Below are positions 1,266 through 47,492 of a stretch of DNA of 52,598 nt, one piece after another (the first letter of the stretch is position 1; each line of letters starts with the position of its first letter). Position numbers and translations under genes: made by a program. The notes under the pieces are model-generated. The model had not been told where the DNA came from. It saw nothing but the letters and a program-made list of their open reading frames with translations, and ran no database searches. The stretch is taken from the NCBI GenBank assembly GCA_000182565.2, contig KQ257471.1, one strand, 5' to 3'. The stretch is from Spizellomyces punctatus DAOM BR117. Its lineage: Eukaryota.

Positions 1266-1446
1266 CTTAATATTTGAATCTTACAAGATGCAAAGGAAAG
1301 ATTGCCCCTCCAGTCTTGGGGGAGGGGGTAACCTGTGCAAGCCTCATAACTGTCATTTATCCGAAATTAGCCAAATTGGCTAATCAAAAAAACTGTGACG
1401 AAGTGGATTTCGACACCCCAACGTAGAAAAAGGCAACAAGGACCAG

Positions 1447-3421
<1,975 letters not shown>

Positions 3422-3731
3422 ATTTTTAAAGTGCAGTGTTATTGCCCCCCGTCCATGCCACCCTGCGAAGCTACTGGCGTAATACAATGCTTGCTCAATC
3501 GTCTGCGACAGTTTGTCTGCCACTTAACGTGATGAGTTGTCTTAATAACCGCGCAAGGGATCTCATTATCATCAGTAGCCAGCAAGTCGGCTTCAGGGGC
3601 CTGACCGATGAGACACTGGTTGCCAGTAGATTGACAATGTGAAGGACAGTAACGTGCGTGCAAATGGTACAGTCTATCGAATAGCGGAAGTGAACGTAAT
3701 CCAGAGAGTGGCTTAGCTAGGTGAAATCAAT

Positions 3732-4600
3732 GTGTGGAGGTGATTGAAAGTGGCACTAGGACCCATTATTATCCGGATTAATCCGGTTAATCATATCGCA
3801 TAATCAGCACCCCCATCTATCGCTCAAAGCGGTGTGGCATGCATGTAATGTTTTTTTTTTTTAAACTGCAGTGAGGCGCATGCTGAAGGTCTATAAAAGG
3901 GGACCTGCTCCCTCTTTCCTCTTTACCCATCCTCGACTCTCAAACCATCTGCGCAAACGCTCATCACGACCCACATCACAACCCTCATCGCGACTCGGTC
4001 AACCATGAGAATGCAGATGTAGTGGTGCCGAGGACCTTGCCCACCTGATTACAACCAACTGGAACCAGCGCAGCCTCGGAACCAACAAAGCTGTTATTAT
4101 GCTGCCACATTAGTTGAGCTTGGTTGGTATGTACTGATTGCATTTTGTCATTCTGTCATTCATCTCGCTGACATGCCATTTTTTGTAGTCTCCAAGCCTT
4201 GTCACTGAAAATCCCCCAGCTTGTGACGCTGCCCAGTCGATTCGCTCCTGGATGCAAGAGTCTGGCTTCAATGCCATCAAGAGTTCTGGATCAAGGCCTA
4301 GTAGGGACCGCGTGTGGTGGTGGGCAATCATCCGGTTAGAACCAACCGTTACGTATTGCGTGTATAATTGCCTAGTAGTAGCTTAGCTTTTCCGAACCAG
4401 TTGTCGCCGGTTTATTCCCTGGTGTACAGCTTGTGCAGATAAAGATGGTGCATCACGTGAGTCATGTGGGGGTCTAGAATTCTAGTCTACACGTCCAAGA
4501 TTCTTGCTGGTGCGGCGGCATGACCCCCACATGACTCACGTGATGCACCATCTTTATCTGCACAAGCTGTAGCTAGTGCCAGTTTCTGTCACCTCTACAC
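3732..4600 (+). mobile_element. Non-autonomous TIR element, Fanzor 'ghost'-like, copy A (contains nested MITE)
   Basis: 28-bp imperfect TIRs (left gtgtggaggtgattgaaagtggcactag; right reverse complement gtgtagaggtgacagaaactggcactag; 24/28 match), TA at 4601-4602, and close similarity along its length to 29105-29813. Confidence 0.88.
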
Positions 4601-4617
4601 TAATCGTGCGTGAAAAT
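4386..4617 (+). ncRNA. Putative Fanzor omegaRNA of copy A (scaffold 4386-4602 interrupted by MITE; predicted guide about 4603-4617)
   Basis: gcttttccgaaccagttgtcgccggtttattccctggtgta[MITE]tagctagtgccagtttctgtcacctctacacta; same layout as the other two copies and as the SpuFz1 scaffold recalled from the literature. Confidence 0.7.
4427..4569. mobile_element. 143-bp MITE, Tc1/mariner-type (Stowaway-like)
   Basis: Perfect 48-bp TIRs (4427-4474 and 4522-4569) starting CAG, flanked by TA (4425-4426 and 4570-4571); absent from the homologous site in copy C. Confidence 0.93.
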
Positions 4618-5290
4618 AGAAATGTCAGTGCCACGGAGCATTGCAGCCAGTTGAATTAACCACATTTATTGTGACATCAACCTCATGAAGATAAACAAAA
4701 AGACAGGTCCAATATGTGTGGCCATGAACGGTGCAATTACTATCCCTTGCGGTCATCTATGAGAGGAATATTCTGCAGTTGCCACCTGCATGATGCTCCA
4801 TGACTCAATATATCCACTCTTTTTCTATATAAACTCCCCCTCTTCTTCTTCCCTCTTGTCTCTTTATCCCTCGACTCTCAAAGCATCTGCCCAACGCTCA
4901 AGTCTCAAATCCATCATGAGAATACTGCTCTGGTGCTGAGGACCTCATCCACCCGACAAAACCAACATAATCCCTTGCAAACGCTGCTATTACTATATTG
5001 CTACGATCGCAGGTATATCTTGCTGATTTTTCCCACGTGCATATTCCCAATTTTACGTAGTATCTGAACATCCTCCGACCCAAAAAGAGCTTTGGAATCA
5101 AAGGCTTAGTAGGATTTCTCTCGTGGTGGTGGGCTTAGTTACCCGGTTGACCAACCGTTATGTATTGCATGTGTAATTGGGCCCAGTCGTAGTTGGTTGT
5201 AAGGAGGGAATTACTTAGCTTTTCCGGGCTGGTTGTCGCCAGTCTACCCCCTGGTGTCTTGTGTTGTGACTTTTGTTATTGCCAATACAC
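4606..5290 (+). mobile_element. Diverged Fanzor 'ghost'-like element, copy B (left end approximate)
   Basis: Shares with copies A and C, in the same order: TATA plus CT tract, cctcgactctcaaa, catgagaat, gaggacct, intron, gtggtggtgggc, ccaaccgtta.gtattgc and the 3' ttttccg...cctggtgt...tacacta end. Left TIR is only weakly recognisable. Confidence 0.75.
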
Positions 5291-5307
5291 TACCAGTAGC
5301 GACTCTG
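5218..5307 (+). ncRNA. Putative Fanzor omegaRNA of copy B (scaffold 5218-5292, 75 nt; predicted guide ccagtagcgactctg)
   Basis: Hairpin ggctgg-ttgtcg-ccagtc and closing stem tggtgt/acacta; stem changes are compensatory relative to copy C. Confidence 0.7.
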
Positions 5308-5387
5308 ATGCCGTAAATGCTTACATACTGTCGCCGTTCCAAAGTATGCATCACTGACAGTGGTTATAGAGGTTTGCTGATAGAGAG

Positions 5388-21197: not shown

Positions 21198-24100
21198 CTA
21201 GCACGAAACTGCCACACCCAATCCACCGACCGATGTCCCATCCAACATAGGGAATGCATTTGCAACCAATTCACAGGTTGCTTTACCATCAAAACTATTC
21301 AAAACTTCCATACCAGCAGGGATAAAGTCTTCGGGCTTCCCTCGTCCTCTCCAGTGTTCAGCCATCCACTTAGGAATCTTTCCTTCCCGCAGGGTTGTTG
21401 CCCTAGTCCCCTCTGTTGACAATTGCACTCCCTGTCCTCCCATGACTGCCCATAATGACAACCACACGATATCCTGTCCGTGACGGCAGTTGGCGGCCGC
21501 CTTCAGCACACCCACAGCGCCCTCTGTAACTTCCTGCGTATACCATCGTGAATTCAAGAAGGGTACTACACTAGTTACTATCCTAAAGATACTATTGTTT
21601 GACATCTGGACTCTAAGAAGTAGCTCGGCCATAGTGGTAAGGGACGCGACGTAGACTTTCATCTGTTGTGATGTTACCACCCGATGATGTACATCGCGAT
21701 GTGCTCGATGCGACCCTTCCTTCTCTCCCGCATATGTCCGCTCAACAGCCCTCTGCAAACTTTTTGCAAGGACTTCAAACCGGGGGATCAGATCGTCCGC
21801 CACCCGTTTGACAACAAAATCGGGCGACAGACGACACATGGTTGCCACAGCAATTAATGCTTCAAATACGACGTAATGTTCCTCATCTCCCAAGCGACGG
21901 GTAATGATCGGCCAGAACTTGTGAATGGTTGGGTTGAGATCGTTCGAGCGTAGGCGGAGGATAGCGAGAGAACTATGAAAAATGCGTAGGGATTGGACCC
22001 GAAGTCTCGGGTTGGCACTGGAGTGGTAATGGTATAACTTGTTGACGATTTTCAGAGCCAATGACTGCACATGAGACGGAGGTCCTACTCCGTCGGCTCG
22101 CTCATCGCTTGTCCCGTGCATGTCGAATTTGTCGCCACTTTGGCCTAGGTCATCCGGTGACGAAATCGGTCTGCCAGGGGATGTTACTCCTTCAAATTCA
22201 CCACTTTTGCGGTCCGTGAAGAATTTTTCTATGTCGCCAATCGATGCCTGTCCGCGGTTCTGCTGGTTCGGTGTTCTTCGCTCTTCAACGGACGGCTTGC
22301 ATTCAAGGTAAAATCCAAGCATTTCTTGCGAACAGGCAGAGAGTTCAAAAGGGGCTCGCTCATCGATTATTGGAGCAAGGCAGACACTTTCACTTCGTTC
22401 ATCCCTCGAGGTCTCTTTCTCCACGGGTACACTGGCATCCTCACACATCACGTCCATCAAGGTCTTAAGAACTCCAATTAGATTGAACACGACTAGCCCA
22501 TTTTCATTGTGCCAATGATCCAAAGCATCCAAAATTTCGTCGACAGAATCATCCATGTAAGGAACGATATGAATACCTGCGATCCGGATTGCCGCCTTTA
22601 GCACGAGTGGCGCTCGTGGATTCTGCGCAATGTAGCGCAAGCGTCGTGATACAATATTCACAATGTAGTCAACATTCTGAAGAATCATTTCGCGCGGCCC
22701 TTGCATGCTATCGCTCGACGGTTGAGTGGATTTGTGATACTCACAAGCTTCCGCGACGGCAATTAATGTAGCCATTGCCGAATCGCTTACAGTTCGATTC
22801 GGATCTCCAACGTTTTCAAGTATTGCATAAAGAGTATCCATAAGCAGTAAGCGAAAGTCGGCTCCAGCCACAGCAGCCATGACCGCTACGCCTTCAAGAA
22901 TAAGACTAGTTTTCTGGATGACGGCGTTAAAGGTACCACTCATCGGAGCACTATCCGGCTCATTCACGAGATAATCGGGGTTCAATCTTCGAAGGTCCTT
23001 GAGAAGCTTCAAATCAGCAAGATTTGTCGGAAGTTTCAGTATGGGTGAGTCAAGATATTCGCGAACTACGGATTTTATAATTGGCATCATAGAGGCTTTT
23101 CTGTCTTCTGACCCATTGGAATAACTGAGAGCTTCGACTCCTACACCCGCAGCACCAAGACATATTTCATTCAGAATGTAGATCGCTTGTGGCTGATAAT
23201 CCCCGAACGCTATGGAACGTAGGTGTCCCAAGAAATGGTCTACCAGAGATTCTAGATCCCCATAGTAGCCCAGTAGGCGGCACATTTGGCTGATAGCCAA
23301 AGTAACTTTATCGTTACGGAAGTACTGAAATCGCTTTCGCGGAAACATGTACGCAAACCGCTTGAAATCTTTTCCGGTTGACGGTTCACTCCTCTCCGGA
23401 ACTTCAGACGCCATATCCATGATGGCAAAGCCAATGCTCGACTCTGCTACCCGATCCTCTACCAGCTTGACTTCAGAGCTATCAAATGTCAAGATCTTAA
23501 GCAATCCAAGAGACACATGATTCATTACAGCTCCCAAGGGCTTGTTGATTTCTCCCTTTAAGAGCATCAAGTAACCGTTTGCGATATGAAGGGATTCTAG
23601 TTTTCTGCCATCATCAGTCTGCATCATTTGTCGCGGTAGCGTCATCATGTAGGAGAAGAAGGTCTCTTTCAGGATGGATGTTACGGAATATTGGTCGCGT
23701 ATTTTAGCGGCTACGACTTCAATTTGCGCCCGGCATTCGTTCGCCACCAAGGGGTATTCGTCATTGACGTAGCACAGCAACGTTTCAACCAACAGCGGGA
23801 TGGATAACCCAAGGGAACAAGAGCAGTGCAGTGCCACATTGGATGCAAACCGCAAGAACCCCAGACGTATTTTCCACTGATCATGACTACGAATCGTAAA
23901 TATACGAGTAAAGAGCTTATTGAGACGTATAACGGTGTTTTTGTGCCAATGGGCATCCCTAACTATATATGGTTTCGGTTGCGGTTCTGAAGAATCTGCA
24001 ACGGTGGCTGGGGCGTGCAATGGCGGCCTCAAATTCTGTGCCCGATCATCCATCGATGGAATTCGCTGAGCCAGCTCGACCAGATCAGCCCAACTAGGTT

Positions 24101-25014
24101 TTTGCTTCGGAAGTAAGTGTTCGCAAGCGTCATCACTCATGACTAATACAATAGTCTGGAGAAGTAAATTCAGACATCCAACGATGATTCGATGGCTGTC
24201 CTTTGCGTCTTTCGTTATCGTTTTGGCCAATGTAGAACTGATTCCCGGTAAGAACTGAGCAACTATATCCGGCTCGCGCAATTGCTGCACGACACGCGAC
24301 AACGTGTCTATAGCGGATACTTGCAGACGCAAATTCCGCTCCTTCTCGATCAAGTCCAATAGAACGACTACTACGTGTGCAACAGCTGGCTGATACTCTG
24401 ATCTACTCAGCTCCTTATCAGTCGTATCCCTTATGGCTACCCTGTCTACTTCCTCGCACTGTTCATTTTCTACCGTCGGGGGTACCGCAGGTTTCTTTAC
24501 CAGGGCCAGCAGACACCGAACGCCGAGGCCTTTGACCTCCTCTGATGTTCCTCTCCCGTTTCTCACTGCCTTCGATACAGTTCCTTGAGATATTATGAAC
24601 GGTAAAGTAACTAGCAGCTCCCGATAAAGTTGAAGCGGCACTGCTTCACCCGGACACATTTCCAAAAGGTACAGTAAACATTCGAGACCGCACTCCAAGG
24701 CACTCAAGGAAGCCGACGGGTAGCTGAAAAGCTGCAGAATTGGAAATGTGACGTATTCAACTAGACCGCCCAGCACGCTCGCGCCGCATTCGCTTGCGCC
24801 AATGACGTGCAGCATATCGAGCAGAGCCACGAGCCGGTTGTTCGCATCTCTGGTTGTAGTTGTCCAGCAGTGGGGATTCATTACGTCCACGCATATTGGC
24901 TTGAGCTGAGCAAGCAAATAAGGTTAGATCAAGAAGACCTGCTTTGGTATTGCCGTCTGATAGCACCTGCTTGAAAGCTTCACGCCTTCGAGATTCTAGT
25001 GTAGCTGAATCCAT
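21198..25014 (-). CDS. TTI1: TEL2-interacting protein 1 (TTT complex HEAT-repeat protein)
   Basis: RREAFKQ/LKPICV, LVEYVTFPI, FLPGISSTL, WKIRLG, LMDTLYAILE, ILQNVDYIVN, PTIHKFWPII; 1239-aa ORF plus a short first exon. Confidence 0.85.
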
Positions 25015-25123
25015 GCAGACCCAGAGGACCTTTAGTAGTTCAAGCTGCCCCACACTATCTCGGGACCGTTCAACTATGGAAGCACCATGCGATAGCACTA
25101 GCGACTACTAGCAGAAGAGGCCA

Positions 25124-25142
25124 TAACCCTAACCCTAACCCT
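25124..25142. promoter_or_regulatory. Three tandem TAACCC telomere-type repeats in the divergent TTI1/LRRC40 promoter
   Basis: taaccctaaccctaaccct within the 250-bp intergenic gap; function is inferred. Confidence 0.5.
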
Positions 25143-25264
25143 GGATGTCAGTTGGATTCCAATTCAACTTGATAGCGTAAGCGCATTGGAGCCGGCTCAT
25201 TCGTGTCAGCGTCAGACCCTCTTTCTCGGAGTACGAACTTTTAGCAAGTTGTCGTATTTTCGCC

Positions 25265-27320
25265 ATGCTCAGCAGTAAGTCCTCCAGGGGAAGGTTCAAA
25301 CGACCTGAATTTCGTAGTGCACCAGCCTCCGTTGGGCCCGAGCAAGTCCTAAGGAAGCTGGTAGCTCAATCACGAACTTCCGGGCGTTTAAATCTTTCTA
25401 ACCGGTCTCTGACGGCAATTCCCAATGCTCTTTGGGATGATGTTGCGGAGAGCACGCAAAAGGTGGACCTTTCCTTTGATAGACGCGAGGCGACTGACGC
25501 TAATTGGTGGGAAGTAAGTAACACTCAGTCATGGCAAAAGGTTTGGGGGCTGAAGCTCATCAGCAACTTCTAGGTGGTGGATTTGACGAGGCTTATCATA
25601 GCTGACAACATGTTGGAAGATTTGGACCCGCGGGTTGGAATGCTTCATGGATTGACAGTCCTGGATGTTCGTTGGTTCTTTCACTTCAATCGTCAGGTTC
25701 CCTCGCAGGTTGTTGAAGTTATCTCCATTTTGATCCAGATTCATAACAACGTAATATCGCGGCTTCCTGAAGAGATTGGGGCACTAATAAATCTTTCGAT
25801 TCTGAATGTTTCCGGCAATAGCCTCACGTCCCTGCCAGCGGGTGTATTCGCCTTGCCTATCATCGATCTGAACCTAGCAAACAACAAATTCTCGGAACTT
25901 CCGGCGTCCATTGGCGACTTTAAGCGGCTGAAAACGCTCGATGTCTCCAACAACAAGTTGACATCCCTTCCAACGTCTTTGAATCAGTTGACGACCTTGA
26001 CTACTCTCAACCTCTCTAGGAACGAACTTGACCTGCTAGGCGACTTCAGCAGTCTAGTCCATCTTAGCGATCTAGAAGTGACTGATAACAGGCTGACTCG
26101 GCTCTTTCCTGCGACTGAAAGCAGCGTGACGCTCCTGCAGTCCTTGCTGCGCCTTGATCTTCGTCGTAACCAGCTCACTTCGCTCGCTCCAGCGGGGGAA
26201 ATCATCAAATTCCCTGCATTACGTGAACTCTATGTTTCCCAAAATACTATAACAAAGTTGGGCGTTGGAATTCTGGCAGAAGCACCCCATCTCCAGATTC
26301 TGGATGTTGGGTACAATAAGCTGACAGAGTTTCCAATGGAAATCCTAGGCTTGAAGGAGCTGAAGCGTTTGGACATTACCAACAACTCGATTGGAAAGTT
26401 ACCGCCAGAGCTGGGTCTATTGGAGGGTATCAATGCTTTTCTATTTACTGGAAACCCTTTGCGTGGAGTGCCGCTCGGGTCGACGTCGAAGATTCTGAGT
26501 ACTTTGAGGGATAAGATCGCAGGTACGACGTCAATTGGAGCTACATTCCGTTTCCACGGCTAATCATGTCACATAGACGCGCCATCTCCCGCCATACAAT
26601 CGCACGCGAGCCCGCCAGGAAGTCCCGGCAGAAGGGCTATACCTCCATCTACCCAAGAGGCGGCCTCCCGCACAGTAGATCTCTCTCAGCGTTCTTTGGG
26701 TCAATTGGATTCTTCGTGTTTCAGTGACCTATCTTGGACTCCTTCCAAACTCATTCTGCATCACAATGCGTTTACCAGAATTCCCGAAGCTGTGTACGAT
26801 TTAGCGCACGGATTAACAACACTTGTACTGAACCACAACCAAATTACAGAGTTCCCCGTGAAAAGCCTTCCTAATTTACAAATCCTGAACTTGTCGTCTA
26901 ATTTCCTTACCTCGCTTCCGTCCTCTCCCGATTTTCCTGCACTGCGCGAGCTCAACGTTAACCATAATCGTATCGCAAGTTTGCCGCCCAGGTTGCCGTT
27001 TCCTCAGCTTGAGACATTTCTCGTTTCAGCAAATGTGATAGACCGGATTGACCCCAATACCTTTCGAAACCTCCAACACTTACACATCCTGGAACTAGCC
27101 GATAACAATATAGCACACATTCCACCTGAGCTAGGGTTGTGCACTGGCCTGCGGATTCTAACGCTTGGGGGGAATCCTTTCAGGGTACCTCGCAGACAGA
27201 TTCTCGATAAAGGTACACATTGAAATCGAATTGCAATTTAGTCGCATCAATATAACTCGTCGTTGGAATTTAGGGACGGATGCCATTCTCGCATATTTGA
27301 GAGACCGTATTCCGACGTGA
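25265..27320 (+). CDS. Leucine-rich repeat protein, LRRC40-like (multi-exon)
   Basis: SRTSGRLNLSNRSLTAIP...NWWE/VVDLTRLIIADN, many LxxLxLxxNxL repeats, LGGNPFRVPRRQILDKG/TDAILAYLRDRIPT*. Confidence 0.88.
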
Positions 27321-27699
27321 TCAACCGATCGATGAAATCTACTGAGACTGTATTCTCATTAGCATTTTCCCGCGTACAGAATGGGTCAGACTTCCCAGTA
27401 GGATTTTCTTGGGGTGGTGGGGATGTGTAAATGATGACTTGAAGAGGAATGCGACCAAAAAATCTGTATAAAAGGGTTGATAGCGTACATAGTAACCACA
27501 GTTATTTATTTTGTTGGAGTTAAACTAGTTAGGATACTTTTAGGGTGGTTGTCATCAAAACATCTACTAGATATGTGTCGATACTGGTGCTTTGCAAGCT
27601 ATAGCCTACCAGGGCCTCCTCGACCCGACCGTTAGTGTCTAAAATATCAATGTACAGCTATCTGTTGCATCACTTGAATGCCCATGAATGAAGTCTATG

Positions 27700-28720
27700 G
27701 GTTCTTAAATCTGCCGACATTGCCTTCCCGACTTCCGAATCGAATCGACACTCTTGATTTCCACACTTGTGAATCTGGGGATTGTTTTGTCGAGTGCCTC
27801 TGCGATGCCAATTGTGCGAACGCACTTTCCACACTTGCCACAGTAGGCTTGGTCATCGATGATCAACTAGAGGTGGGAGCCATCATATTGGAGGTTGACC
27901 TCCACAGTTCTCTGTAGATCACTTGGCCGTCGTGCGGCCATCGTGCACGTTTTCGCATGCAGAGAGTACAGCGAAAGAAGCCATGATGGACAATGTAAGA
28001 TAAACCGTATGGACAGAGGTATGAAAATTAAGGAACGATGCTCAGCTGATTACATTGAAAGATCTGGTGCAATTGGAGCAATATAAAGCCCACCACAGCA
28101 TGCCCTATGACACTCAAGCGACTATCCAAGAAACCATGGCGAATTTCAAAACTGAACAGAACACTTACGAGAGATGTCCCAACAAGGGTCACGAAATACA
28201 AGCTAGAGGTCCAAATCATCAGTGGAAAAGACTCAAAGTGTCTGGAGCCAAATGGTTAACATGAGTCCTAAAATTGATTTCGCTGGCTAGGCCCTGACCT
28301 TTACTCGAAAGCTCGTCGGCTGCATTTCTTGATTTCTGTGAGGCAACCACAAAGAGGAAACGTGCGGACGGTTTCACATACCTGTATTTTCAGTGCGGAA
28401 AAGACAAAGGAGGTCGAGTGTTTATAAATCGTTCTTATTCTCTGGATGATTACTGGTACTTTATCATACACTACAATGCAAAGGCCACAGGAGCACCATT
28501 CTGACCAGAGGTCTTGGATGACATATTCTTTAAGGCCATAGCTCTGTTGCAGAGCGAGTAAACGCGCAGATTGGACAGTCTCACCCATTCTCATCGGAAA
28601 CGTGCCGTGGGGCAAACATGTGCTCAATAGCTTGTCGATCCAGGGCACTGTGGACCTTTTTCGATGTCCGCCAATGATCATCTTTTGACGATGTCTATCC
28701 AGCTTCCACAAAAATCTTGT
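27700..28720 (-). pseudogene. Possible decayed gene of unknown family
   Basis: Minus-strand frame EVNLQYDGSHL*LIIDDQAYCGKCGKCVRTIGIAEAL has an internal stop; further short coding-like fragments at 28301-28711; no recognisable domain. Confidence 0.25.
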
Positions 28721-29104
28721 CTTACTTCAGCATCGGAAAGACAAAACTGCTAGCGGGGTTCCTAAACATAAACGAGAGTGGAAGGATAAAAATGAGGAAA
28801 GGACGAGATGCCAGAGCAAGAGAGAACAAGATCAGGCAAGTGTTTTAATGTATGTCAGTCACCTCGTGGGCTATTATGGCGTGCCCCGAGTTGATGATGG
28901 CAGGGAGGGTGCACGACCGAATTCTGCATGAAAGCTTCCTCCGAAGGAAGATTCAGTACATGTGAACATCACCCTACGGTATAGAACGTTTACGTTGCAC
29001 AGGACGACACGCAAGGCAATGATACGGATGCATTTGATCATGCTTTCCGTCAACATCTATTCGTCACGACCGTAGGATACCTAGGACATCATCTGAACCA
29101 CATA

Positions 29105-29813
29105 GTGTGGAGGCGATTGAAAATGGCACTAGGACCCATTATTATCCGGAGTAATCCGGTTAATCATATCGCATAATCAGCACCCCCATCTATCGCTCAA
29201 AGCGGTGTGGCATGCATGTAATGTTTTTTTTTTAAACTGCGGTGAGGCGCATGCCAAAGGTCTATAAAAGGGGACCTGCTCCCTCTTTCCTCTTTACCCA
29301 TCCTCGACTCTCAAACCATCTGCACAACGCTCATCGTGACCCACATTGCAACTCTCATCGCAAGTCCATCATGAGAATGCAGATGTGGTGGTGCCGAGGA
29401 CCTCGCCCTCCCGATGACTACAACCAACTGGAACCAGCGCAGCCTCGGAACCAACAAAGCTGTTATTATGCTGCCACATTAGTTGAGCTTGGTTGGTATG
29501 TACCAATGGCATCATTTCATTCTGTCATTCATCTTGCTGACATGCAGTTTTTAGTCTCCAAGCCTTGTCACTGAACATCCTCCAGCTTGCGAGTCTCCCC
29601 AATGTTGTGAAGACTCTGGCTTCAATGCCATCAAGAGTTCTGGATCAAGGCCTAGTAGGGACCGCGTGTGGTGGTGGGCAGTTATCCGGTTAGAACCAAC
29701 CGTTACGTATTGCGTGTATAATTGCCTAGTAGTAGCTTAGCTTTTCCGAACCAGTTGTCGCTGGTTTATTCCCTGGTGTAGTAGCTAGTGCCAGTTTCTG
29801 TCACCTAATACAC
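29105..29813 (+). mobile_element. Non-autonomous TIR element, Fanzor 'ghost'-like, copy C (most intact)
   Basis: CATA at 29101-29104 immediately 5'; TA on both sides (29103-29104, 29814-29815); imperfect TIRs gtgtggaggcgattgaaaatggcactag / ctagtgccagtttctgtcacctaatacac; homologous to 3732-4600; no transposase or nuclease ORF. Confidence 0.9.
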
Positions 29814-29830
29814 TAAGCATGCCTATTGGA
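29740..29830 (+). ncRNA. Putative Fanzor omegaRNA of copy C (scaffold 29740-29815, 76 nt; predicted guide agcatgcctattgga)
   Basis: gcttttccg-aaccag-ttgtcg-ctggtt-tattccc-tggtgta...tacacta: perfect 6-bp hairpin plus a 7-bp closing stem; resembles the SpuFz1 omegaRNA as recalled. Confidence 0.78.
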
Positions 29831-29990
29831 CGTGCAGGTCGAGTATTTGTTGCAAATGGACCACAATTGAGCACATGGCACATTCGAACCAAAACCTTAT
29901 CAAAGTTTTCCGATCGTGCTATGACTCATTTGGAAGGCCCGTCAGATTGTTGCGGCCATTCTCGACTATCTTCTTGGATGGCGATTAAAA

Positions 29991-32148
29991 ATGTCACTTC
30001 ACGACAACAATAGATCCCTTTCTCCCACTAGGCAACGAGCAGACAGTCCTTCGCGTCAACCACAACAGCGTATACAAAATGATAGAGAAAGAGAGCAGCA
30101 GCGAATAGGCACTCGGGCGCTTATTGGACGGCACTCAAAAGATCGGAACCTGAGCATCTTCCTGGAGGAAAGGAAAATTGTATCTGAGGATGGAGCAAGA
30201 TGGCCGCACCTTGCAGGGTTGGTGACTGTAGATCCTGTAGGTGCTAGGGGACTCCTTCTGGAAAAATATGGTGAGATTCTGCTACTACTATTAATTTCTT
30301 TCGCCGCGAGTGTAATCTGCCTTAACCTGGCTTAACCTTGGTGATGCGGACAGTTCCCTACGCAGAAGTGCAATGCATTCTTTTGTACCGGACGGCGCTG
30401 GGCGCCGTGATAGAAAGGGTTGTCTATAACCGGACAAGCCAATTGCGGGAATTGCCATCAAATGCGGATAGTTCGTCGGCTACCACATGGGAGGGCACTC
30501 AACCGGGGCGTCGAAGATATCCATTTTTCTTCGACTTCGGAAATGATGCGCTACCTCCCTCATTTTGTTTTGATCCAACGGACCTCCATGAAGGTGTTCC
30601 GATTGGACTTCATTGGGAAGTTATGGGCTTCTTGGGACAAAAGGTCATGGTCACCGAAGACGGGATGGCTTCCTTGAGTATGGATAGCGCTGGAAATATG
30701 TTGCAAGGAGCGTCGTATACGTTTCGAAGACAGTCGCTGGTAACACTCAACTTCCATGTGGAGCACCGGCACACTCTTTCGGGACTAGCCCTACCACCAA
30801 TGACATCCACTCAAACGCTTCGCCCATCCCTATTTTCATTTGGACGATCATCGCAACCTGAGACAACCGTCACTGCTACTCTTGAGCGTCCGCTATGCAG
30901 TTCCGAAGCACCTTTGAAAGTGAATGTTGAGCTTACCAAGCTCCACAAATCTCACCGTGTCCAGCGAATTCGTCTCGTTGCCAAACAAATCATTACTATC
31001 CGCCTACCTACCCAACAGCAGTTACAGTACAAAGCAAATATCGCTGTAGCGGAGGATACTCCTGCTCCACGGTACGACCCGTCAAGCAATAACGAGTTCA
31101 ACGGTGTTTATGCGTTGCATGTTGGCCGAGGGATCCCAGAGAAACCGAAGAAAGGCAAAAGTCCGGCGCGGGTGATACCGTTGGATTGGTTTAAGAATCC
31201 CGTGCCGTTATCCGCGGCAAAGGAATTTGTTGCGTCTACTCCTCCGGTGAAGTCCTTCGATGACGCTTGGGGCCTCGAGGTCAAGTACGTTTTGAAAGTG
31301 GAGGTATCCCTCTCCGACTCGAGCGGGACGTTCGGAACTAGGGAACGTGAGTTGGAAGTGTCTTTGCCGTTCATACTGACCGGGGTTCCAGAGGGTGAGT
31401 TTTCTTGCTGAACTTTGTGGGAGCGGATATTAATTGGTGTCTCCTCTTAGACGAGGCTCCAGCGGCAGCTGCGATTGTATCACCATCCCGTCGTTCCTCA
31501 ACTTCAGAAGATACTGTACCCACCGCACCCGACGCGCTACTTCCCTTACTTTCCGAAACCTTGGATGATCTTGAGCAATCTACGGCAGATGTAGCGATTT
31601 TGCGCCAGGAATGGCGAAGCTTACGCAGTGAATCGACAAATTGCACTAGGTCTTCGGACCATGCCCACGAGATACTTGATATTCTGGGGATGCTAACCAG
31701 GCAACTTAAAGTTTTTGCGGAAAGTTACTCTGTTAGTGACGGTGCGGTCCGTTGGCCCAAAAACCCGGTTCCCTTCAATATGCTCGTGCTCGAAACAGAG
31801 CTACTAGCTCGAGCTGCACCGGATGAGTTGACAGTTGAGGCTCAAGACACCGCGGGACGCACTGGTGGAGCTGCCGAAAACAGTGTATCCGTGGTGGACG
31901 CTGTCTTGAAGGCCACCGATGCCTTCTTTTCCGCCGGTAAATCAGTCGTTCTTGCGTGGATCGCCTCACGTGGCGGAACCCACGACGCTGCAGAATCTGA
32001 AGAATTTTCAAGAAAGGTCGATACTCTCGAAAATGCAATAAACAGCTTGAAGAGGGGATTGGAAGCGATTGTCGCAGGGGCCGATCAGGAGTTTGTGCAG
32101 GCTGAAGATTTAGACAAAGATAGGGAAACCTCAGCTTTGGAAGCGTAA
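29991..32148 (+). CDS. Arrestin of the beta/visual type with a C-terminal helical extension (multi-exon)
   Basis: HSKDRNLSIFLEERKIV...GLVTVDP, RYPFFFDFGNDALPPS...GLHWEVMGF, VTATLERPLCSSEAPLKVNVEL...[31 protein letters not shown]. Confidence 0.75.
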
Positions 32149-32785
32149 ACCACTTAATAAAACTCTTGTCAAAATTACAATTGAGTGCTTAGCATCTGGC
32201 GACGTCTTGACACGTCATGCTAACCAGTTGAACTATTTGTTGAGAAATTCTGTAGGATCGGTCCTTTGTTGCTAATTCCACTACAGTTCCCTTAAGACAA
32301 TCGGAGATCCTGATGCCTGTTGACTTTGGAAAGCCGACATATATAGTACCTGACCTGTCCACGTTAGTGTGGGAAGATGCTGCAGCAAGAAAACCATATA
32401 TCCCTATTTGTTTGGACATAGAAACGAAATCCACAACGACCAACTCAAAGCTTCGTATTCTCTCTCTGGGAAGATTTATTAACAACGCTGCGCTTCCGTC
32501 TGGTTTTGCAAGGTAGGTTCCTCAAGATCCCTGCATATCCTGCGCAGCTGTAACGTCTCTTTGCACAACTAGCTCTTGTACCATTCTTGGATTTGAATGC
32601 ACATCCCTCGTTGAAAGAGATAAAGTGCATATGATAATTAGGAACGAACCCGCACGAATAATTGTTCGGAATACGGTGACAGGTGAGCAATTGCATGGCT
32701 CGACATACTGTGCATTCGTTCATTCTGTTCGCATCAAGAGGCGTGGAGGGCTGTGCTTGAAATTTTAAAGGAAAAGGGCGAAGCA

Positions 32786-34334
32786 ATGAGAGAATTGTAT
32801 CAGATGGACATACAATCATGGGATTGGACCATCCTTATGTTGTGCAGCTACTGGAGCAAATGTCGGAGGTCGATGTCGCTGTTTCAGGTAGGAATTATAA
32901 CCACTGACCTTTGGGGCAAAGGCACTAAACCCTTCTTAAGGCTCGCATCAGCGTAAAACCAAGATGAAGAGCATACGCGAAGATCCAGCGCTAATTGCCA
33001 CCAAAATGGTTTCGAGTAACGTAGGGGGAGCAGGCCAGAAATGTAATCTTCTGCCTGATGAGCGATCCTTGTCCAGCCTGAGTTTCGCTGAAGAGAAATC
33101 GAGAATACTCGCACAGCCCGTTTGGTTGAGTACAACGACTGCAGTCATTGCCCTCGGCCGGTTTATGTCCCGTGCAGATGCCTACCCAACTGGATACCAA
33201 ATGTGGGCGTCTTTTTTGAGACTAATCGAGTTGGCAACTTCTGAAGCTTTGCTACAGACTCAAACGAGCGGAAGAACAGATTTACGTACTCACTGCCATA
33301 GGAAGCCGAGAATTTCAAGCCAGATCAACAACAGAAGTTATCTGCACCGAGAAGTCACCATTGTCCGTTGTCGTCGCTGCCGACCCAAATACACCACTAA
33401 TAAGATAATTTTTTTTGGCATAGATTAACCTTGAAACGTCTTCAGAATGTGTCGGTATGGTTGCCGTTCTGATGCAAAGTCATTTCCTTGTTCAGCGTTA
33501 GACGGTCGCTCTTGTAGGACTTTTTCGCAGGGGCCCTTACTGAAACACATGCGGCCGTGAGTTCTTAAGGTGTGCTGCGTTTAGTGGCTACCCTTATGCG
33601 GAAATCTTGCCAAGCAGGAGCAGTGGGGTTTCGTCGACGAACGTGTCCGACGATGGTTCGCCGATATGAGAAACGTTGTCAGCGATCCGGAGACACTGCC
33701 CTCAATTACACTCGGGGAAAACTGCTCTGGTCATTATCATGTAGCCACGATTGATGGACCCAGGTATAAGCGAGATACGGTAACCGCAGAGTTTACTTCT
33801 GTATCCGAACTCGCGGGGTTAGATATCTTTGCACCAACCTTCATCCGTACATTGGAAATGCCCTTGGAAAACTTTACCGATTTGAGCGTTTCCGACCGGT
33901 GCGAAGATGGGCAATATGATATAGACGTGGAATCTGAATTCGGCAAGGCGGATGTTGAGCAGCCGGACAATATTCGGCATTCCCTCACGCCCTGCCCAGA
34001 GTTGGACGTGAAACCCATAGAGCCAGATGGCCATCAGGTTCTCGAACGAGCACAGTCTGTCATGTCTGTTGTAACCGATACATTGCGTGAAGCAGGCAGC
34101 AGGTTAGCTTTGTTACATGAACAACAGAAGGGCCTTGCTTCTCTGTTGCCACCCGTGATCAGACAGCGTCTTGTGAAACGTGATTGGGATGCAAAAGCAT
34201 TACGAGTGAAAAGGAGTTACGACCAGCGAGAGAAGTTAATGGTAAAAGAGTTAAAGCGACTGCAGTCTCAAATTTCCGATGCAGAGAATATGATGGCAAT
34301 TGCCAGGAAAAAGAGGCGAGCCTTGATAGAGTGA
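32786..34334 (+). CDS. Hypothetical protein, multi-exon, with C-terminal coiled coil; 5' structure uncertain
   Basis: 222-aa ORF 33666-34334 ending in a heptad-rich basic helix; upstream coding-like segments with splice signals. Confidence 0.4.
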
Positions 34335-34876
34335 GTCTTAGAAGTCCCAACTATCTCTTTCACTCGTAACATATCCTTCTGCTAGAGGACTCGAGGAAAC
34401 ACTAGCGGCAGTTGTGGCGATGGACTGACATTCCATAGTCGCGTAGAGATCAATCGGCTCCTATTACTAAGTGTGATTTGACAATGAGGACCTTATATTG
34501 AGTACACGTAATTACTATAGATACTCCTATTGATTTGTGTAAAGTACGGCGGGTGGCTGTCGCGCAAATATATACTGTGGTAGTCTAACGTCCAATACTC
34601 CTAAAGATCGCTTACTTTCTTGATACACTCATTTGGCATCCGATCCAGTAAATCAGCAATACTATATGAAATTGTTCTGGTCCTCAGCTTTTAGCGATGC
34701 TTATGTTCGTAGGTCCAGCTCACCACAAAAATTAACGAGTTTGTTCAAGTAAATAGTAAATAGTTGATTTTGCTACATTATGACTTCGGCTACTGAAATC
34801 CAAGATCGTCGCACTGAGGGATTGAGTATATTATCTACAGAAAAAGCCAGTGTCTAGCGATAAATAAAATAAGTAA

Positions 34877-37800
34877 TTATATGGCGGTGTTCATTCCGTT
34901 AGCAAAGGATTGCGGGACTGCGAGAGACTGATTTTGCTCAAAATTATTTCCGGCCGTCAGTACTGGCGCCGCTACTTCCGGTGCTTTATGCTGCGGAGGA
35001 GTTGCATAGCGTATCCCAAGTTCGAGCAGATTCTTCTTCAGGGCAAACATGAACTGTTTTAAGCAGTTAGTGAGGGGTTGTGCAATCGGAATGCGAAATT
35101 TCACACAGACCATAGTTCTCCTATTCCATCGCTTGGATCCATCTTGCCTATTTCCACAAGAACCTGTCAGCGACCCGTTATCTTTCAATTTTCATTGTCG
35201 TCCTCACCAGTTGCCCTTATGCTTCAAAATGACGTTAACTTTTAATTTATTCAGGTTTTCAATCTCTGATATGTGGATATCGCAAACTCCCTGGAATTCT
35301 CGGGGCTCTGATTTGACAAAGTCGATCATTCGCTCCTTCAGCGCTCGTAATTTCTCTTCAGGAGTGTCGAAATCTGAGTGGTAGCATAAGTATTCAGCGA
35401 AATGGTTCGCCTGGGGATGACGGAATACTTACTGAGTTGAAGCTCGATACTTTCGGACTAAACAAGGGAAATTTCAGCGAAGAAACTATCACGGCTGATA
35501 CATCGGACCCTCATTAGGAGCGTACCTGATCACCCGACCTCCGGAGATTGTGAATTAACTTGGACGCCACTAAAGCTGCAACCATAATCACTGGTATCGG
35601 TAGGTGTCCAATACGACGATGATTGCTGTCCAGACATACTATTTGGCGCATATATAAGTTGTCCATCCAACCTCTTGAAAACCGTAGTTAAAACTCCAAC
35701 CTCCTCAACGAGCAGATTTTGATTGTCAATAACGACTCGGTCACCTTACGTTCTATGAGTTGTGTGATTTTGCCAGCGAGCTGGAATTGAATAGATCTGC
35801 TTACCAGCGTCATACGGATGTGTCAAAAAGAGAAACAGAAGTGACTCAAATGCCGTACGGGCTGCCGTCCCTACAAACAAGCACGTCAGTGGCAGAAAAA
35901 ACGGTGCTGTGTAGCGATCGGGAAAGTTACCAAATACAAAACTAAGAGCCAAAATGAAACTTGTAAACGGTAGCATTGCGGTGAGTGATATTCCGAAAAT
36001 CGGCAGTGCTATGCAGAAGGTAACAAAGCTTGTTACAAAATAGAAAAACCTGACAGGTCCAACACGAAGTTACTCGACCGGATCAAGTGCTTATCCTAAC
36101 ACAGCGCGATACCTACGTGTTCAGTTTCCCAAGTGCTTGCGACAAATCTCGCATCGCTCGGAACAATCGACGGCGTTCGCGATACATCCCAATGACGACC
36201 TCTTTGACCTCCTTGCGCGTAATAGATCCGTTCCCATCTTGATCGAGAGCAGCAAAGGCATCTGCAGCCTCAGTGGGGCTTGAGAAGGTGCTATGTATAG
36301 ACTAAATGTGAGAAGGCCTAGCTGGAGTCAACCCAGTATGGTCCAAAACTGATTCTCTTACCATACTAAGTCATCTAGAGTCAAGTACCCCTTTTCATTG
36401 CCACCAAGGCCGATGAAAATCTTTTTCGCTAGTTTTCCTGCTTGGATATTGCTTGTGATGTCCATTCTTGCCAGTTCTCTAATATATTTATGTCCATGAA
36501 AAGTGGGTGGATTCATAATGCTGTTCAGCGTATTGGAGGTATCTGGTGAATGTAGTGACTCAGGAACCCCTTGCTCGATGGGTTGATGAACAGAAGATGC
36601 ACGAGACCTAGGTCTAAGAAGAGACGGAAGTCTCGTCGAATGGCGACTATGACGACCAAGGTCCGTTGCGTCCAACATCTTTGATGGTGTCATAGCTGGA
36701 GATCGTGGGGCAGATCTTGGCGTTGGGTTTCTCACGCTGGAGCTTGATAATCGCCTCATTGTCCCTGATTGTTCTACGGTCGTGGTTTGCCCCAAGTCGT
36801 AAACCTGTGGCGCTGTGATGAGCTCGTTGGATGCAAGCGCCGATGACTTGACCACTTCCTCTTCCTCAGCATGCTGTCCAATGACATCAAATGTTGTATT
36901 AAGCTTCGCGAGCCCCACGTCTGATGTCTCATCGGAAGTCTCTATCATTTCCATCGCCGAGCTGGCGTCCTCGGTAGTAGAAGAGCCAGTACGACGTCTA
37001 GATACTACCATCTTCCAGAACCCTGATCTTCGTGTCCTCTTTCTAGGCGACTGATCAACTGCAGGTAGTGTGTCGGTTCTTTCGCCCCGGGTATTGTCCT
37101 CCTCCAGCACCCCCTGAGAACGTCCCTTGGCGGTGTTAAGCTCCGCAGGAACAAAGAATTCGGCAAAGGTGCGACTTTTGATGGACTTTTTAAGATTGTC
37201 CAGAACTATGAAGTAAGGAATTTCCATGGAGTCAGCTGCTGTCTTATTTCAATCTTACAGTTCAACTTTGAGTACATTCACTTACTTCTCATGTGATGCT
37301 TCGATTCTGCAATGCGATCCCGGTATGCGACTCTGCAGCAGATGAAATTGAACCAGATGAGCATTAATGCCTGTCAAACGTAACGCGAAACCTTTACCTA
37401 TGGAAATTAACCGCTAATGGGGCCAGTGAACGTAAATTGAGCATCTAATGCTGTGAAAAATTGGCATGGTCACATCGTACTTACCAATAATCTGCAACAC
37501 AAGTTTGTGCACCAGGAGGCAGATCGCAAACACCATTCCCGTCACCAAAACATGAAAGACTGTCTCCCAATAATCCACCTGCTGCATTTGGTTGAATAGT
37601 AGAGCATAGGACACGACGGTCAAAATTGCCCAGCAGGTAATGGTTAGGAAAAGCTTCACTGCGACCATGTACTACAATTTAAAGGTAAGCCAACGTGCAT
37701 GACATGCAACGACATATCGAAATTACCTCTAATCGAGCACGAGCACGCTCACTGTATCCACCAAACAGCTTGCTCAGAAATACTACGATGAGGTAGGGTA

Positions 37801-38508
37801 GTGCATCGATAAAGTACCATAGCACCACCCAACTAATCCACGTAGCACCCAACCAGCATGACCTATGCGAGCATCGTGTGTCAGTATCAAGCAAAGTAAT
37901 GTCATATATTCGTGATTCTACCATCTTGCAACCTCAGTACTGACACGTAAATCGGATTTTGATGATACCGAATCAAACACTCCTGGGTCTCCAGGATTCC
38001 AGATAATTAGGCTCACGAGCGCCGGTGTCGCAAACAACGCAATACCGGAGAACAAGTACACAAAGAAACGCGCCCACCCTGGTAAGTAGCAACAATCGAG
38101 GCCAAATAAACCTTTTGCCCGATATTCTTTTTCTTCCTCCTCCGGCTGGGCATCGGTCTCCACATGAAACCAGTCAAACTCATCCTCTGGAGGCTTCGCC
38201 GTACCTGGCGCCCCAGTGTTGGGCGACTGTTCGTTGAGGAGAGGATTTGAGCCTGGAGAATAACGTGGTGGAGAGGAACCGGAACCGGACTGTGGCGGTA
38301 ATGATGTAGAAGATTGCGCAGGGCCTTGTACGCGCACTGTGAGATTCTCGGTTTGCCGCACCCTCAAGTTCTTTTGCAAAGCTCCGGGTGTGGTCGGTAA
38401 CGCTGATGAATTCGATTGATTAGATTGAATATTTTCAACAGTTTGCGATGCTCCTTCGGCGGATGCAGGAGGTGATGGATGTGATTTAAAATTCTGGGGG
38501 CTCGACAT
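34877..38508 (-). CDS. MscS-like mechanosensitive channel (Msy1/Msy2 type) with EF-hand
   Basis: N-terminal TM helices, AGKLAKKIF, FAALDQDGNGSITRKEV, LALSFVFG...AFESLLFLFLTHPYDAGD, LVASKLIHNLRRSGDQ, HKGNWQDGSKRWNRR...FMFALKKNLLELGIRY. Confidence 0.9.
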
Positions 38509-38734
38509 TTTCCTCCCTGAAAGCAAGTCTATGTAACCTGGGGCACCGACGAAAGTCGGAGATTTGTGCAGCTTCATCCGAGTCCTGTTGCTCATTTTGA
38601 TTTCACATCCCGTAAACATTTACCCTTATCACATTCCATAAGGCTGATCATATTACGAAGATCATAAGCAGTACATTAACTTCCACATCGCCCGAGTCGC
38701 GAATGCATCATCTAGTCATCATCGCTGCATAAAA

Positions 38735-39165
38735 CTATGTTTCGCCACTGTCAAGCTCGCTACTAGATGCGATCTTCTTCTTCAATGAATTATGCCAATG
38801 ATTGCGAACTTGCGACTCGGTAACGCCGTATATTTTGTTGAATGCTTCAGTTACTTTTCCCCATTGCTTTCCATGCTCTTTTACCAGTTCGATGATCGTG
38901 GCATCTTCCTCCGGTTGCCAGATTTTTCCCGGTTTGAGCAGTGCCTTGGATTGCCCCTGATAGATACGTATTCAAAGCCAAAGCTGTCGTGGGCAACAAC
39001 AATAGGATGGATCTGGCAGGATCTAATAAGCAAAGTGCTTACCTCACTGGCGTCAGTGGATTTCTTGCGTTTGGGCGTCGGTGGAACTGATGTACTGCTT
39101 CTTGGCTCGTTCTCATCCTGTTCCAGAACGAGTTCTTCCGATTTTATTTTCTTTGGCCTTCCCAT
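38735..39165 (-). CDS. Small single-Myb/SANT domain protein (about 114 aa, two exons)
   Basis: Exon 1 MGRPKKIK...STDASE, GTAAG...CAG intron, exon 2 GQSKALLKPGKIWQPEEDATIIELVKEHGKQWGKVTEAFNKIYGVTESQVRNHWHNSLKKK with three spaced Trp residues. Confidence 0.85.
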
Positions 39166-39572
39166 TGGCGTAGGGTATGTGACTGTCTTTTTTCAACGTG
39201 ACGAAGATTAAATTGATAATGCAACTTGCGTGCGAAATCTCCTCATATCTATACTCATCTTTATATGAACGCGAGTTACTGATGGGCTGGCATGATGTGG
39301 ATTAGAAGGGGCTTGCCACTTGTGTGATGGCCAGTGACAGCGCCCCCAATACTTGAACACTGGATACACATATTCAATAGGGCACCATTGAGCGGGCACG
39401 ATGTGGCGGGTTGTTTGCAGGCAGTAGATTTCATCTTTTGATTTTTATTATCCATGGTGCATTAGGGGATACAGTTAATGGAAATGCTAAAATGCAGGAC
39501 AGCATTACCGAATACAATTTATGCACAGAGACTGAAATTATCATTATTCGCTAAGTGACTTTGAAAATCAAT

Positions 39573-45471: not shown

Positions 45472-45544
45472 GCTTCCTTAGCTCAGTTGGGAGAGCGTTA
45501 GACTGAAGATCTAAAGGTCTCGTGTTCAATCCACGAAGGGAGCA
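45472..45544 (+). tRNA. tRNA-Phe(GAA), intronless
   Basis: gcttcct...agggagc-a acceptor, ttaga-ctgaaga-tctaa anticodon arm, 73 nt, downstream T-run. Confidence 0.96.
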
Positions 45545-47419: not shown

Positions 47420-47492
47420 TGCTCCCTTCGTGGATTGAACACGAGACCTTTAGATCTTCAGTCTAACGCTCTCCCAACTGAGCTAAGGAAGC
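47420..47492 (-). tRNA. tRNA-Phe(GAA), identical inverted copy of 45472-45544
   Basis: Exact reverse complement; A-run at 47395-47400 gives the Pol III terminator on the minus strand. Confidence 0.96.

Follow-up and report, generated by a model that had tools for sequence, protein, structure and literature searches.

Ghost Spu-1 elements carry a conserved transcription unit, TATA-driven and spliced, that begins 5' of their omegaRNA and extends into it

How Fanzor nucleases are supplied with guide RNAs in the cells that naturally harbor them is largely an open question, guides so far having been defined by small-RNA sequencing and by expression in yeast. According to the text of Saito et al. 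2023 (PMC10432273), the genome of Spizellomyces punctatus contains 134 ghost Spu-1 loci that are bounded by 30-nucleotide (nt) repeats with CA upstream, that lack a Fanzor open reading frame (ORF), and that combine a conserved interior of ~550 nt with a 75-nt omegaRNA scaffold at the right end. These ~134 nuclease-less loci have previously been treated as a scaffold plus inverted repeats, and what their interior is for is the question we take up here. We analyzed a 52,598-nt stretch of the S. punctatus DAOM BR117 genome (contig KQ257471.1 of assembly GCA_000182565.2; hereafter the window) that holds three related elements, all on the + strand: copy A (~3730-4602), copy B (~4823-5292) and copy C (29103-29815). 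A sequence-only reading of the window had proposed that a conserved, TATA-driven, spliced transcription unit lies upstream of the omegaRNA. Sequence analysis and RNA sequencing together bear out this proposal and indicate that the unit runs into the omegaRNA. With moderate confidence, we take the element to be a compact RNA polymerase II cassette whose product is a spliced precursor, probably without coding function, that carries the omegaRNA in the final exon.

In all three copies the same signals occur in the same order and at the positions that had been claimed for them. In particular, a TATA box (TATAAAA at 29263-29269 in copy C and 3892-3898 in copy A; TATATAA at 4826-4832 in copy B) is followed by a CT-rich tract, by the start ATGAGAAT (29371 in C, 4005 in A, 4916 in B), and by a short GT..AG intron. 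The introns of copies C (29496-29554) and A (4127-4188) each read GTATGT..GCTGAC..TAG, and that of copy B (5013-5060) reads GTATAT..TGCTGAT..TAG. Splicing copy C in silico gives, as had been proposed, a frame of 87 codons, which is interrupted by TAG at codon 6 in copy A and by TGA at codon 8 in copy B. Because the three copies are homologous repeats, the shared motifs could by themselves reflect no more than inheritance; what takes the unit beyond chance is that RNA reads join exactly at the predicted GT..AG boundaries, that DNA runs contain the intron and lack the joint, and that the similarity of copy B to the other copies starts at the TATA box. The parts of the unit in copy C are as follows.

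29133..29262, + strand: left arm, containing a T10 run as well as the short palindrome ATCCGG..CCGGTT; barely transcribed, 97% identical between A and C, probably the upstream promoter region.
29263..29269, + strand: TATA box TATAAAA, read from the sequence; the homology of copy B begins here.
29289..29316, + strand: interval (rather than exact base) holding the transcription start, in the CT-rich tract, from RNA depth.
29300..29495, + strand: exon 1, its 5' limit approximate; first AUG at 29371 with A at -3.
29496..29554, + strand: spliceosomal intron of 59 nt with GTATGT donor, GCTGAC branch-like site and TAG acceptor, from RNA joints.
29555..29740, + strand: exon 2 up to the scaffold, with the end of the 87-codon frame (stop at 29691-29693) and a conserved folded domain.
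29741..29815, + strand: 75-nt ghost omegaRNA scaffold, with stem-loop 1 at 29748-29767, a linker, and a stem 2 that includes the right inverted repeat.
29816..29830, + strand: predicted 14-15-nt guide in flanking DNA, placed by a published rule; RNA depth is 212 in the bin 29806-29872 and 0 beyond.

Is this unit transcribed and spliced? We aligned four sequencing runs to positions 28600-30600, the copy C stretch, at a likeness of at least 90%; reads accepted at this threshold describe the family and not copy C alone. Run X23 consists of stranded raw RNA reads of 60 nt, of which ~6% of the run was sampled. Run X1 consists of contigs that are labelled 'DNA?' and that behave as RNA: an 83-nt GT..AG intron of the neighboring gene, near 30270-30353, is missing from them, intergenic bins have a depth of zero, and the element stands more than 1,000-fold above its flanks. 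(It is the missing intron of the neighboring gene that leads us to treat X1 as RNA.) Runs X2 and X3 are low-coverage DNA with a flank depth of 2.6-4.0 and contigs that are unbroken over intergenic DNA and over the neighboring gene's intron. The flanks of the element are present in the sequencing runs with zero differences. DNA depth on the element is 9-115 times flank depth, a crude figure that fits the published count of loci.

Transcripts of the family are abundant: 156,028 of the 26,394,413 sampled X23 reads (0.59%) fall on the element at the family level, and neighboring genes reach a depth of at most 15. First mates on the + strand are ~100-1000 times commoner than on the - strand, and since the intron reads GT..AG on the + strand, the ghost RNA is + sense; the strand assignment rests on this orientation together with a ratio of 930 to 5 among the spliced reads, the neighboring genes being too thinly covered (depth of 1 or less) to give the direction convention of the library. 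Plus-strand depth in X23 is 4-11 over 29255-29288 (7 at 29288) and then climbs to 447 at 29316 and 641 at 29335, so that transcripts begin ~25-50 nt 3' of the TATA box, within the CT-rich tract. Over exon 1 and proximal exon 2 the depth is 1,300-5,100, and over 29605-29805 it is 22,800-39,300, three bins there giving 22,850, 39,319 and 24,609; it then drops to 212, and to 0 from 29873. With a plus-strand depth of 0 in the flanks at 28734-29068 and 29873-29939 as well, the RNA ends at the right repeat or a few tens of bases past it, and there is no read-through into or out of the flanking DNA.

Two faint signals accompany the start region. Low plus-strand RNA on the left arm (29069-29202, depth 113-214) falls to 7 before the TATA box; it might come from transcription that enters the element at other copies, or be a short RNA in its own right. 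Weak minus-strand RNA at 29203-29336 (depth 130 and 60), just 5' of and over the TATA box, amounts to ~0.5% or less of the downstream sense signal and may be divergent transcription from the ghost promoter.

Junction reads at 29496-29554 had been named as a check on the proposed intron, and they are present. The joint 29494>29554, which is equivalent to removal of 29496-29554, is carried by 930 + 5 X23 reads (first mate on + and -, respectively) with 21 start places, and by three X1 contigs. At 29535, inside the intron, depth in X23 is 2 + 1 reads, compared with 3,883 at 29473 and 2,893 at 29583; the three reads inside the intron carry a letter that is not that of copy C. In DNA runs X2 and X3, by contrast, the intron is covered (bin depths of 101 and 131) and no contig carries the joint. 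The intron, uncovered in RNA but covered in DNA, is thus removed from the RNA and is not missing from the DNA. Six X23 reads and one X1 contig use a minor donor 4 nt 5' of the main donor (joint 29490>29554). A further joint, 29335>29368 (2,635 reads), is a DNA-level deletion variant that is also found in one X3 contig.

These same data bear on whether the unit could be an artefact of DNA contamination, of read-through from a neighbor, or of a retro-copied version of the element that lacks the intron. The many copies of the family do make it easy to mis-assign reads, and one of the two RNA data sets carries the label 'DNA?'. However, not only the intron but also the left arm is almost uncovered in RNA despite good coverage in DNA, reads favor one strand by 100-1000 to 1, plus-strand depth in the flanks is nil, the DNA runs yield no contig without the intron, and X1 also lacks the intron of the neighboring gene, as RNA would. 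An artefact of this kind is largely refuted by the read data, and we regard it as very improbable.

Does the unit form one transcript or two? Raw X23 depth rises 5-10-fold near 29605-29640, from 2,893 at 29583 to 21,883-30,236 at 29641-29681, and X1 behaves similarly. The step suits an alternative that we consider unlikely, although well ahead of an artefact, in which the omegaRNA starts independently within exon 2, around 29600-29640, and the TATA-driven spliced RNA is separate or incidental, as it might be if a promoter, first exon and intron had been captured from the host and did not contribute to the guide. Such a start is also favored by the region from 29633 onward, where conservation between subfamilies is highest and which folds by itself. 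However, 7,162 reads over 29610 extend upstream into a variant borne by copy A, no pile-up of read starts that would mark a discrete internal start is listed within 28600-30600, no conserved promoter-like motif is present near 29600-29640, and successive X1 contigs (29554-29633, 29622-29695, 29682-29761) lead from the splice acceptor to within the scaffold. Moreover, the step falls at a boundary between subfamilies that is marked by an indel and by divergence, and it is largely gone once RNA depth is normalized to DNA depth. Taken bin by bin, the ratio of X23 plus-strand depth to X3 DNA depth is 0.41, 0.46 and 0.02 over the left arm and the TATA bin, 6.3 in the start bin, and 78 and 62 over exon 1. 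In the pair of intron-containing bins it is 10 and 17, and for the 3' domain the values are 100, 287 and 62. By this crude measure, exon 1 and the omegaRNA region are present at comparable levels per mappable copy, and both stand more than 100-fold above the left arm. We therefore read the element as one transcription unit that extends from a TATA-proximal start to the right end.

Several observations weigh against this reading of a single, conserved, guide-bearing transcript. Taken alone, the step in raw depth could point to a second internal start or to a stable processed 3' species, and the RNA/DNA ratio is itself crude, being based on summed contig depth, which is a rough proxy for mappable copies and not a copy number. 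No read or contig physically joins exon 1 to the scaffold, the reads being 60 nt long and the contigs breaking at repeat variants. No poly(A) tail is found among the loose ends listed, and depth simply falls from 24,609 to 212 to 0 over 29739-29939. As to which copies are expressed, copy C's own letter at position 29463 occurs in 181 of 2,776 plus-strand reads, and at 29463 and 29465 90-93% of reads carry letters that are not those of copy C, so that the expression is that of the family, to which copy C itself may contribute. The splicing reads were aligned to 28600-30600, the copy C stretch; the intron of copy B is predicted from its sequence. (Among the loose ends, copies with B-type tails and the B-type insertion are among the most expressed, with 12,017 and 6,699 reads.) Finally, the comparison of conservation covers three DNA copies.

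Within that comparison, copies A and C share 90% identity over ~700 nt, and copy B shares with them only blocks of 68-85% identity. Between A and C, identity is 0.83 in the intron (with three gap columns, and with GTATGT, GCTGAC and TAG intact), 0.86 in the 5' untranslated part of exon 1, 0.91 in proximal exon 2, 0.96 in the core promoter, 0.97 in the frame-bearing part of exon 1, 0.98 in the 3' domain and 0.97 in the scaffold. The intron is thus the least conserved segment between A and C, yet its splice signals are intact. Between B and C, identity is 0.90 in the 5' untranslated region, 0.73 in exon 1, 0.73 in the intron, 0.86 in the 3' domain and 0.75 in the scaffold; the intron of copy B has changed in length and in sequence and has kept its splice signals. 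Upstream of the TATA box, nothing recognizable is common to B and A/C, including in the ~220 nt that precede copy B (4603-4825), which have no match in A or C; the stretch that B shares with A/C is exactly that from the TATA box to the right end.

The sequence-only reading had offered, as one of two possibilities, a spliced polymerase II host transcript from which the guide RNA is processed. Efficient splicing, transcription of one strand, coverage from ~29290-29316 to the right repeat and the lack of a discrete internal start all favor the host transcript; the part of the claim that concerns processing of the guide stands as a proposal. The enzyme is probably RNA polymerase II, because the unit has a TATA box and undergoes spliceosomal splicing. 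In the mechanism that we propose, the left arm and TATA box would drive initiation ~25-50 nt downstream, in the CT-rich tract; an exon 1 of ~190 nt would be followed by the 59-nt spliceosomal intron, removed almost completely; and exon 2 would run via the conserved folded domain into the 75-nt scaffold and then into a copy-specific guide past the repeat, with the transcript ending no more than a few tens of bases from the edge of the element. Exon 1 and scaffold would presumably be joined in a single molecule. Such an RNA would be laid out like a Fanzor mRNA, with a long 5' part and a 3' omegaRNA, the nuclease ORF being replaced by a short leader. Most likely it would serve as the precursor for the guide of a Fanzor made elsewhere in the genome, after trimming to a guide of 88-90 nt that would be loaded into the nuclease, and each ghost copy would express a guide for its own insertion site. 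The intron may have a role of its own, for instance in raising expression or in distinguishing the RNA as the output of a gene. Saito et al. 2023 (PMC10432273) recovered native-type omegaRNA from yeast in which a GAL-GAPDH promoter drove a Fz ORF with its 3' repeat, which establishes, for a canonical locus, that the 3' end can mature from a polymerase II transcript.

A consensus fold of the 3' part of the three copies gives a hint as to what else exon 2 might contribute. The fold has 48 pairs, and 96.4% of its cells are paired, compared with 36-44% when partners are slid by 1-3 columns, controls that flatter a fold derived from the very sequences on which it is scored. Five pairs show two-sided changes, compared with 0-1 in the slid controls, and 6 of 500 shuffles reach five. 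Three of these compensatory pairs lie in stem-loop 1 of the scaffold and two lie in a predicted three-way junction:

29675..29728, + strand (4321-4374 in A; ~5128-5185 in B): predicted three-way junction formed by helices 4-6 of the consensus fold, with compensatory changes in B.

The variants found in the reads are in keeping with the fold: positions 29753 (A>G in 45%) and 29762 (T>C in 40%) pair with each other in stem-loop 1. The three-way junction lies immediately 5' of, and outside, the published 75-nt scaffold; that it is kept between subfamilies raises the possibility that it may be a stabilizing or processing domain of the precursor. Copy B carries an extra 21-nt segment (5186-5217) between the 3' domain and the scaffold. 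Copies that bear this insertion rank among the most highly expressed, with 12,017 loose-end reads. The insertion is complementary to a segment of an A/C-type exon 1 (8-10 of 500 shuffles did as well) and not to B's own exon 1 (401 of 500), and pairing with exon 1 was dropped as unconvincing. Two metagenome pattern scans with conserved 3'-domain motifs returned no locus in one case and one in the other; the latter, a seawater locus, shares only a 26-nt pattern, its best BLAST E value exceeds 0.2, and it was set aside as a chance match.

What kind of element carries this unit? Copies A and C resemble the published ghost Spu-1 (Saito et al. 2023, PMC10432273) in their 30-nt repeats, in the CA upstream of them, in the lack of a Fanzor ORF, and in a conserved interior of several hundred nt. 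The boundaries of copy C, and the other two copies, are as follows.

29101..29102, + strand: CA dinucleotide 5' of the left inverted repeat of copy C; with the first TA of the repeat it gives CATA, the published SpuFz1 target-adjacent motif.
29103..29132, + strand: left 30-nt inverted repeat of copy C, from local alignment with the reverse complement of 29785-29815.
29785..29815, + strand: right inverted repeat of copy C, from repeat search and local alignment.
3730..4602, + strand: ghost copy A, with TATA box at 3892, ATG at 4005, intron at 4127-4188 and TAG at codon 6; a palindromic insertion at 4425-4571 interrupts the scaffold.
4823..5292, + strand: ghost copy B, of a diverged subfamily, with TATA box at 4826, ATG at 4916, intron at 5013-5060 and scaffold at 5218-5292.

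The repeat arms of copy C at 29111-29132 and 29785-29806 are 22 nt long and 82% complementary, and can be extended to 30/31 nt with one gap; those of copy A are 28 nt long and 86% complementary. CA stands immediately before the left repeat in both, ahead of TAGTGTGG in copy C (29101-29102) and ahead of ATGTGTGG in copy A. Saito et al. 2023 (PMC10432273) give CATA as the target-adjacent motif of SpuFz1. The TA found at each end of copy C is in keeping with the TA target duplications described for SPu-1 (Bao and Jurka 2013, PMC3627910). From repeat to repeat, copy C measures 713 nt, with an interior of ~650 nt that is somewhat above the published ~550 nt, and its longest frame has 87 codons when spliced and 107 when unspliced. 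None of the 10 window ORFs that were scanned, out of 25 of at least 150 amino acids, matched a TnpB or Fanzor Pfam family. From these features, copies A and C fit the published ghost Spu-1 and would be nuclease-less, inverted-repeat-flanked relatives of the S. punctatus Fanzor1 transposon. For copy B, no left inverted repeat is recognizable beside copy A or elsewhere in the window (370 of 500 shuffles reach its best score) and a right repeat only is found; as judged from sequence, it has the transcription unit and the right end in common with A and C.

The right-end segment of copy C at 29741-29815 is the ghost omegaRNA scaffold. Like the published ghost Spu-1 scaffold (Saito et al. 2023), it is 75 nt long, has UGUC(G) in the loop of stem-loop 1 and ends in ..ACACUA. 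Compared by way of the nucleotides named in the text of Saito et al. 2023 and not by alignment with the canonical sequence, and in the numbering of the canonical rather than the ghost scaffold, 11 of 18 named positions of the SpuFz1 omegaRNA match directly (U5, C6, C7, U16, G17, U18, C19, G20, C32, A72 and A75), the linker and stem-2 positions A29, C32, C34, U35 and G37 all fit given a one-base shift, and G22, C40 and G70 do not match. Ghost scaffolds are described as differing from the canonical one in stem 2 (Saito et al. 2023, PMC10432273). The same paper reports that omegaRNA transcripts reach 14-15 nt past the 75-nt region and that four ghost scaffolds are active as guides with SpuFz1 in human cells; activity of the 75-nt ghost scaffold in human cells is also covered in PMC13434818. 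In the unit described here the scaffold sits in the terminal exon, 187 nt 3' of the splice acceptor.

A search of 29050-29900 with Rfam 15 covariance models, including those of self-cleaving ribozymes, gave no matches at E values up to 10. The same models applied to 3650-5350 gave chance-level matches together with two weak matches to microRNA models, far under gathering scores, that originate in the palindromic insertion of copy A (4425-4571). This insertion is a 147-base-pair element with perfect 50-nt palindromic arms, flanked by TA, that lies inside the copy A scaffold, past stem-loop 1 and ahead of the right repeat. By its appearance it is a miniature inverted-repeat transposable element distinct from the ghost, and it should have inactivated the guide RNA of copy A. 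Copy B follows directly 3' of the right end of copy A, with 4603-4825 between them, so that the would-be guide of copy A is the DNA just 5' of B.

The second possibility raised by the sequence-only reading was that the cargo is a small accessory peptide that replaces Fanzor. More broadly, the spliced RNA could be, or could also be, an mRNA for a small protein that acts with or instead of Fanzor, made up of at least the exon-1 part of ~41-43 residues (MR..WWCRGPRPPD..YYAATLVELG). In keeping with such a protein, the frame opens with the transcript's first ATG, which has A at -3 and is kept in all three copies; the exon-1 frame can be aligned in five of five copies, with 12 invariant columns and net in-frame length changes; the indels between A and C are of 3 and 12 nt; and two loci are annotated as proteins. 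(These two annotated gene models lie elsewhere in the S. punctatus DAOM BR117 genome and read over the same exon junction, with ..VELG before it and CLQ.. after it.) However, stops break the frame in two of the three window copies (codon 6 of A, codon 8 of B), and the part that follows the splice runs in three different frames to different stops in copy C, P0002 and P0003. The 3' half of the frame overlaps the RNA domain with compensatory pairing. Ratios of synonymous to non-synonymous codon changes, 3:2 between A and C (40 codons) and 5:18 between B and C (32 codons), give no coding signature, at low power. No Pfam family reached its cut-off in four queries (the best, NinE, had an E value of 0.037 and 14.4 bits, compared with a cut-off of 25), and among 5.8 billion clusters the exon-1 frame has only two protein relatives, both 'uncharacterized proteins' of S. 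punctatus DAOM BR117. Annotated gene models are, moreover, a biased sample of open copies. The claim of a peptide that replaces Fanzor is thus not upheld, and a coding role of either kind strikes us as improbable, more so than an internal start for the omegaRNA.

A spliced, probably non-coding precursor has partial counterparts among known systems. The hosts of small nucleolar RNAs (snoRNAs) and primary microRNAs are spliced polymerase II transcripts in which any ORF is short and poorly conserved and which presumably exist to yield a small structured RNA. The ghost unit differs from both in that its small RNA lies in the terminal exon and not in an intron, and in that it ends in copy-specific flanking DNA. 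The comparison with snoRNA host genes that had been drawn for this locus is therefore apt as regards a spliced host transcript and imperfect in that the guide sits in the terminal exon. Among bacteria, TnpB processes its own mRNA into omegaRNA (Nety et al. 2023, PMC10278001). There, as proposed here, transcription begins far 5' of the guide, which forms the 3' end of the long RNA and is then cut to its final length; here, however, the leader is short, spliced and free of a nuclease ORF, the setting is a eukaryote with a TATA promoter, and the nuclease would act in trans. IStrons are IS605/IS607 elements that unite a group I intron with an omegaRNA (10.1101/2023.11.20.567912, PMC13521648), and they resemble the ghost unit as TnpB-family transposons in which splicing and guide-RNA production fall on one transcript. 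In contrast to IStrons, the ghost unit has a small spliceosomal intron inside the element, upstream of the guide.

Ghost elements are themselves already known; it is their architecture of promoter, start site, intron and spliced precursor that appears to be undescribed. Saito et al. 2023 speak in their text of 'a conserved region of around 550 nt', where no promoter, start site, intron or long spliced transcript is named. The small-RNA data described there concern Fz loci and not ghost loci, and the legend of the alignment of ghost loci (Extended Data Fig. 3b) names only 'IRs and omegaRNA regions'. None of the four features occurs in the text of PMC10432273 or PMC13434818, although the supplements and figures of Saito et al. 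may show conservation. Nor is any of them described for ghost elements in the portions consulted of PMC3627910, of Yoon et al. 2023 (PMC10711439) and of a 2025 review (PMC12649098), or in what literature searches returned. The assertion that the internal architecture had not been described thus agrees with literature searches, the supplements and figures of Saito et al. 2023 aside.

That ghost elements have their own promoter and intron, and that the RNA of the family is among the cell's more abundant ones (0.59% of the reads sampled), suggests an actively maintained supply of guides. More tentatively, and with rather less than even confidence, we raise the possibility that ghost Spu-1 elements, rather than being decayed remnants, are dedicated mobile guide-RNA genes, in which a TATA promoter, an efficiently spliced leader and a covarying three-way junction make up an expression and processing module that delivers more than 100 site-specific omegaRNAs to Fanzor in trans, as a dispersed eukaryotic counterpart of a CRISPR array transcribed by polymerase II, with the intron needed for high expression or for escape from silencing. 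Were they mobile guide-RNA genes, they would offer the first native blueprint for polymerase II-driven expression of OMEGA guides. For genome editing in eukaryotes, the unit would provide a design from nature for expressing guides by polymerase II, and its TATA box, intron and 5' folded domain are parts that can be tested. It also makes testable the question of whether a non-autonomous element persists through a guide for its own insertion site.

Elsewhere in the window, a Pfam scan identified ORFs for TTI1, Sec2p, LRR, P-type ATPase and POT-family proteins; the content is eukaryotic, with 44-51% G+C. The assembly has a gap of 100 N at 49419-49518. Two tRNA genes, at 45472-45544 (+) and 47420-47492 (-), have identical Rfam scores and lie in inverted orientation ~1.9 kilobases apart.

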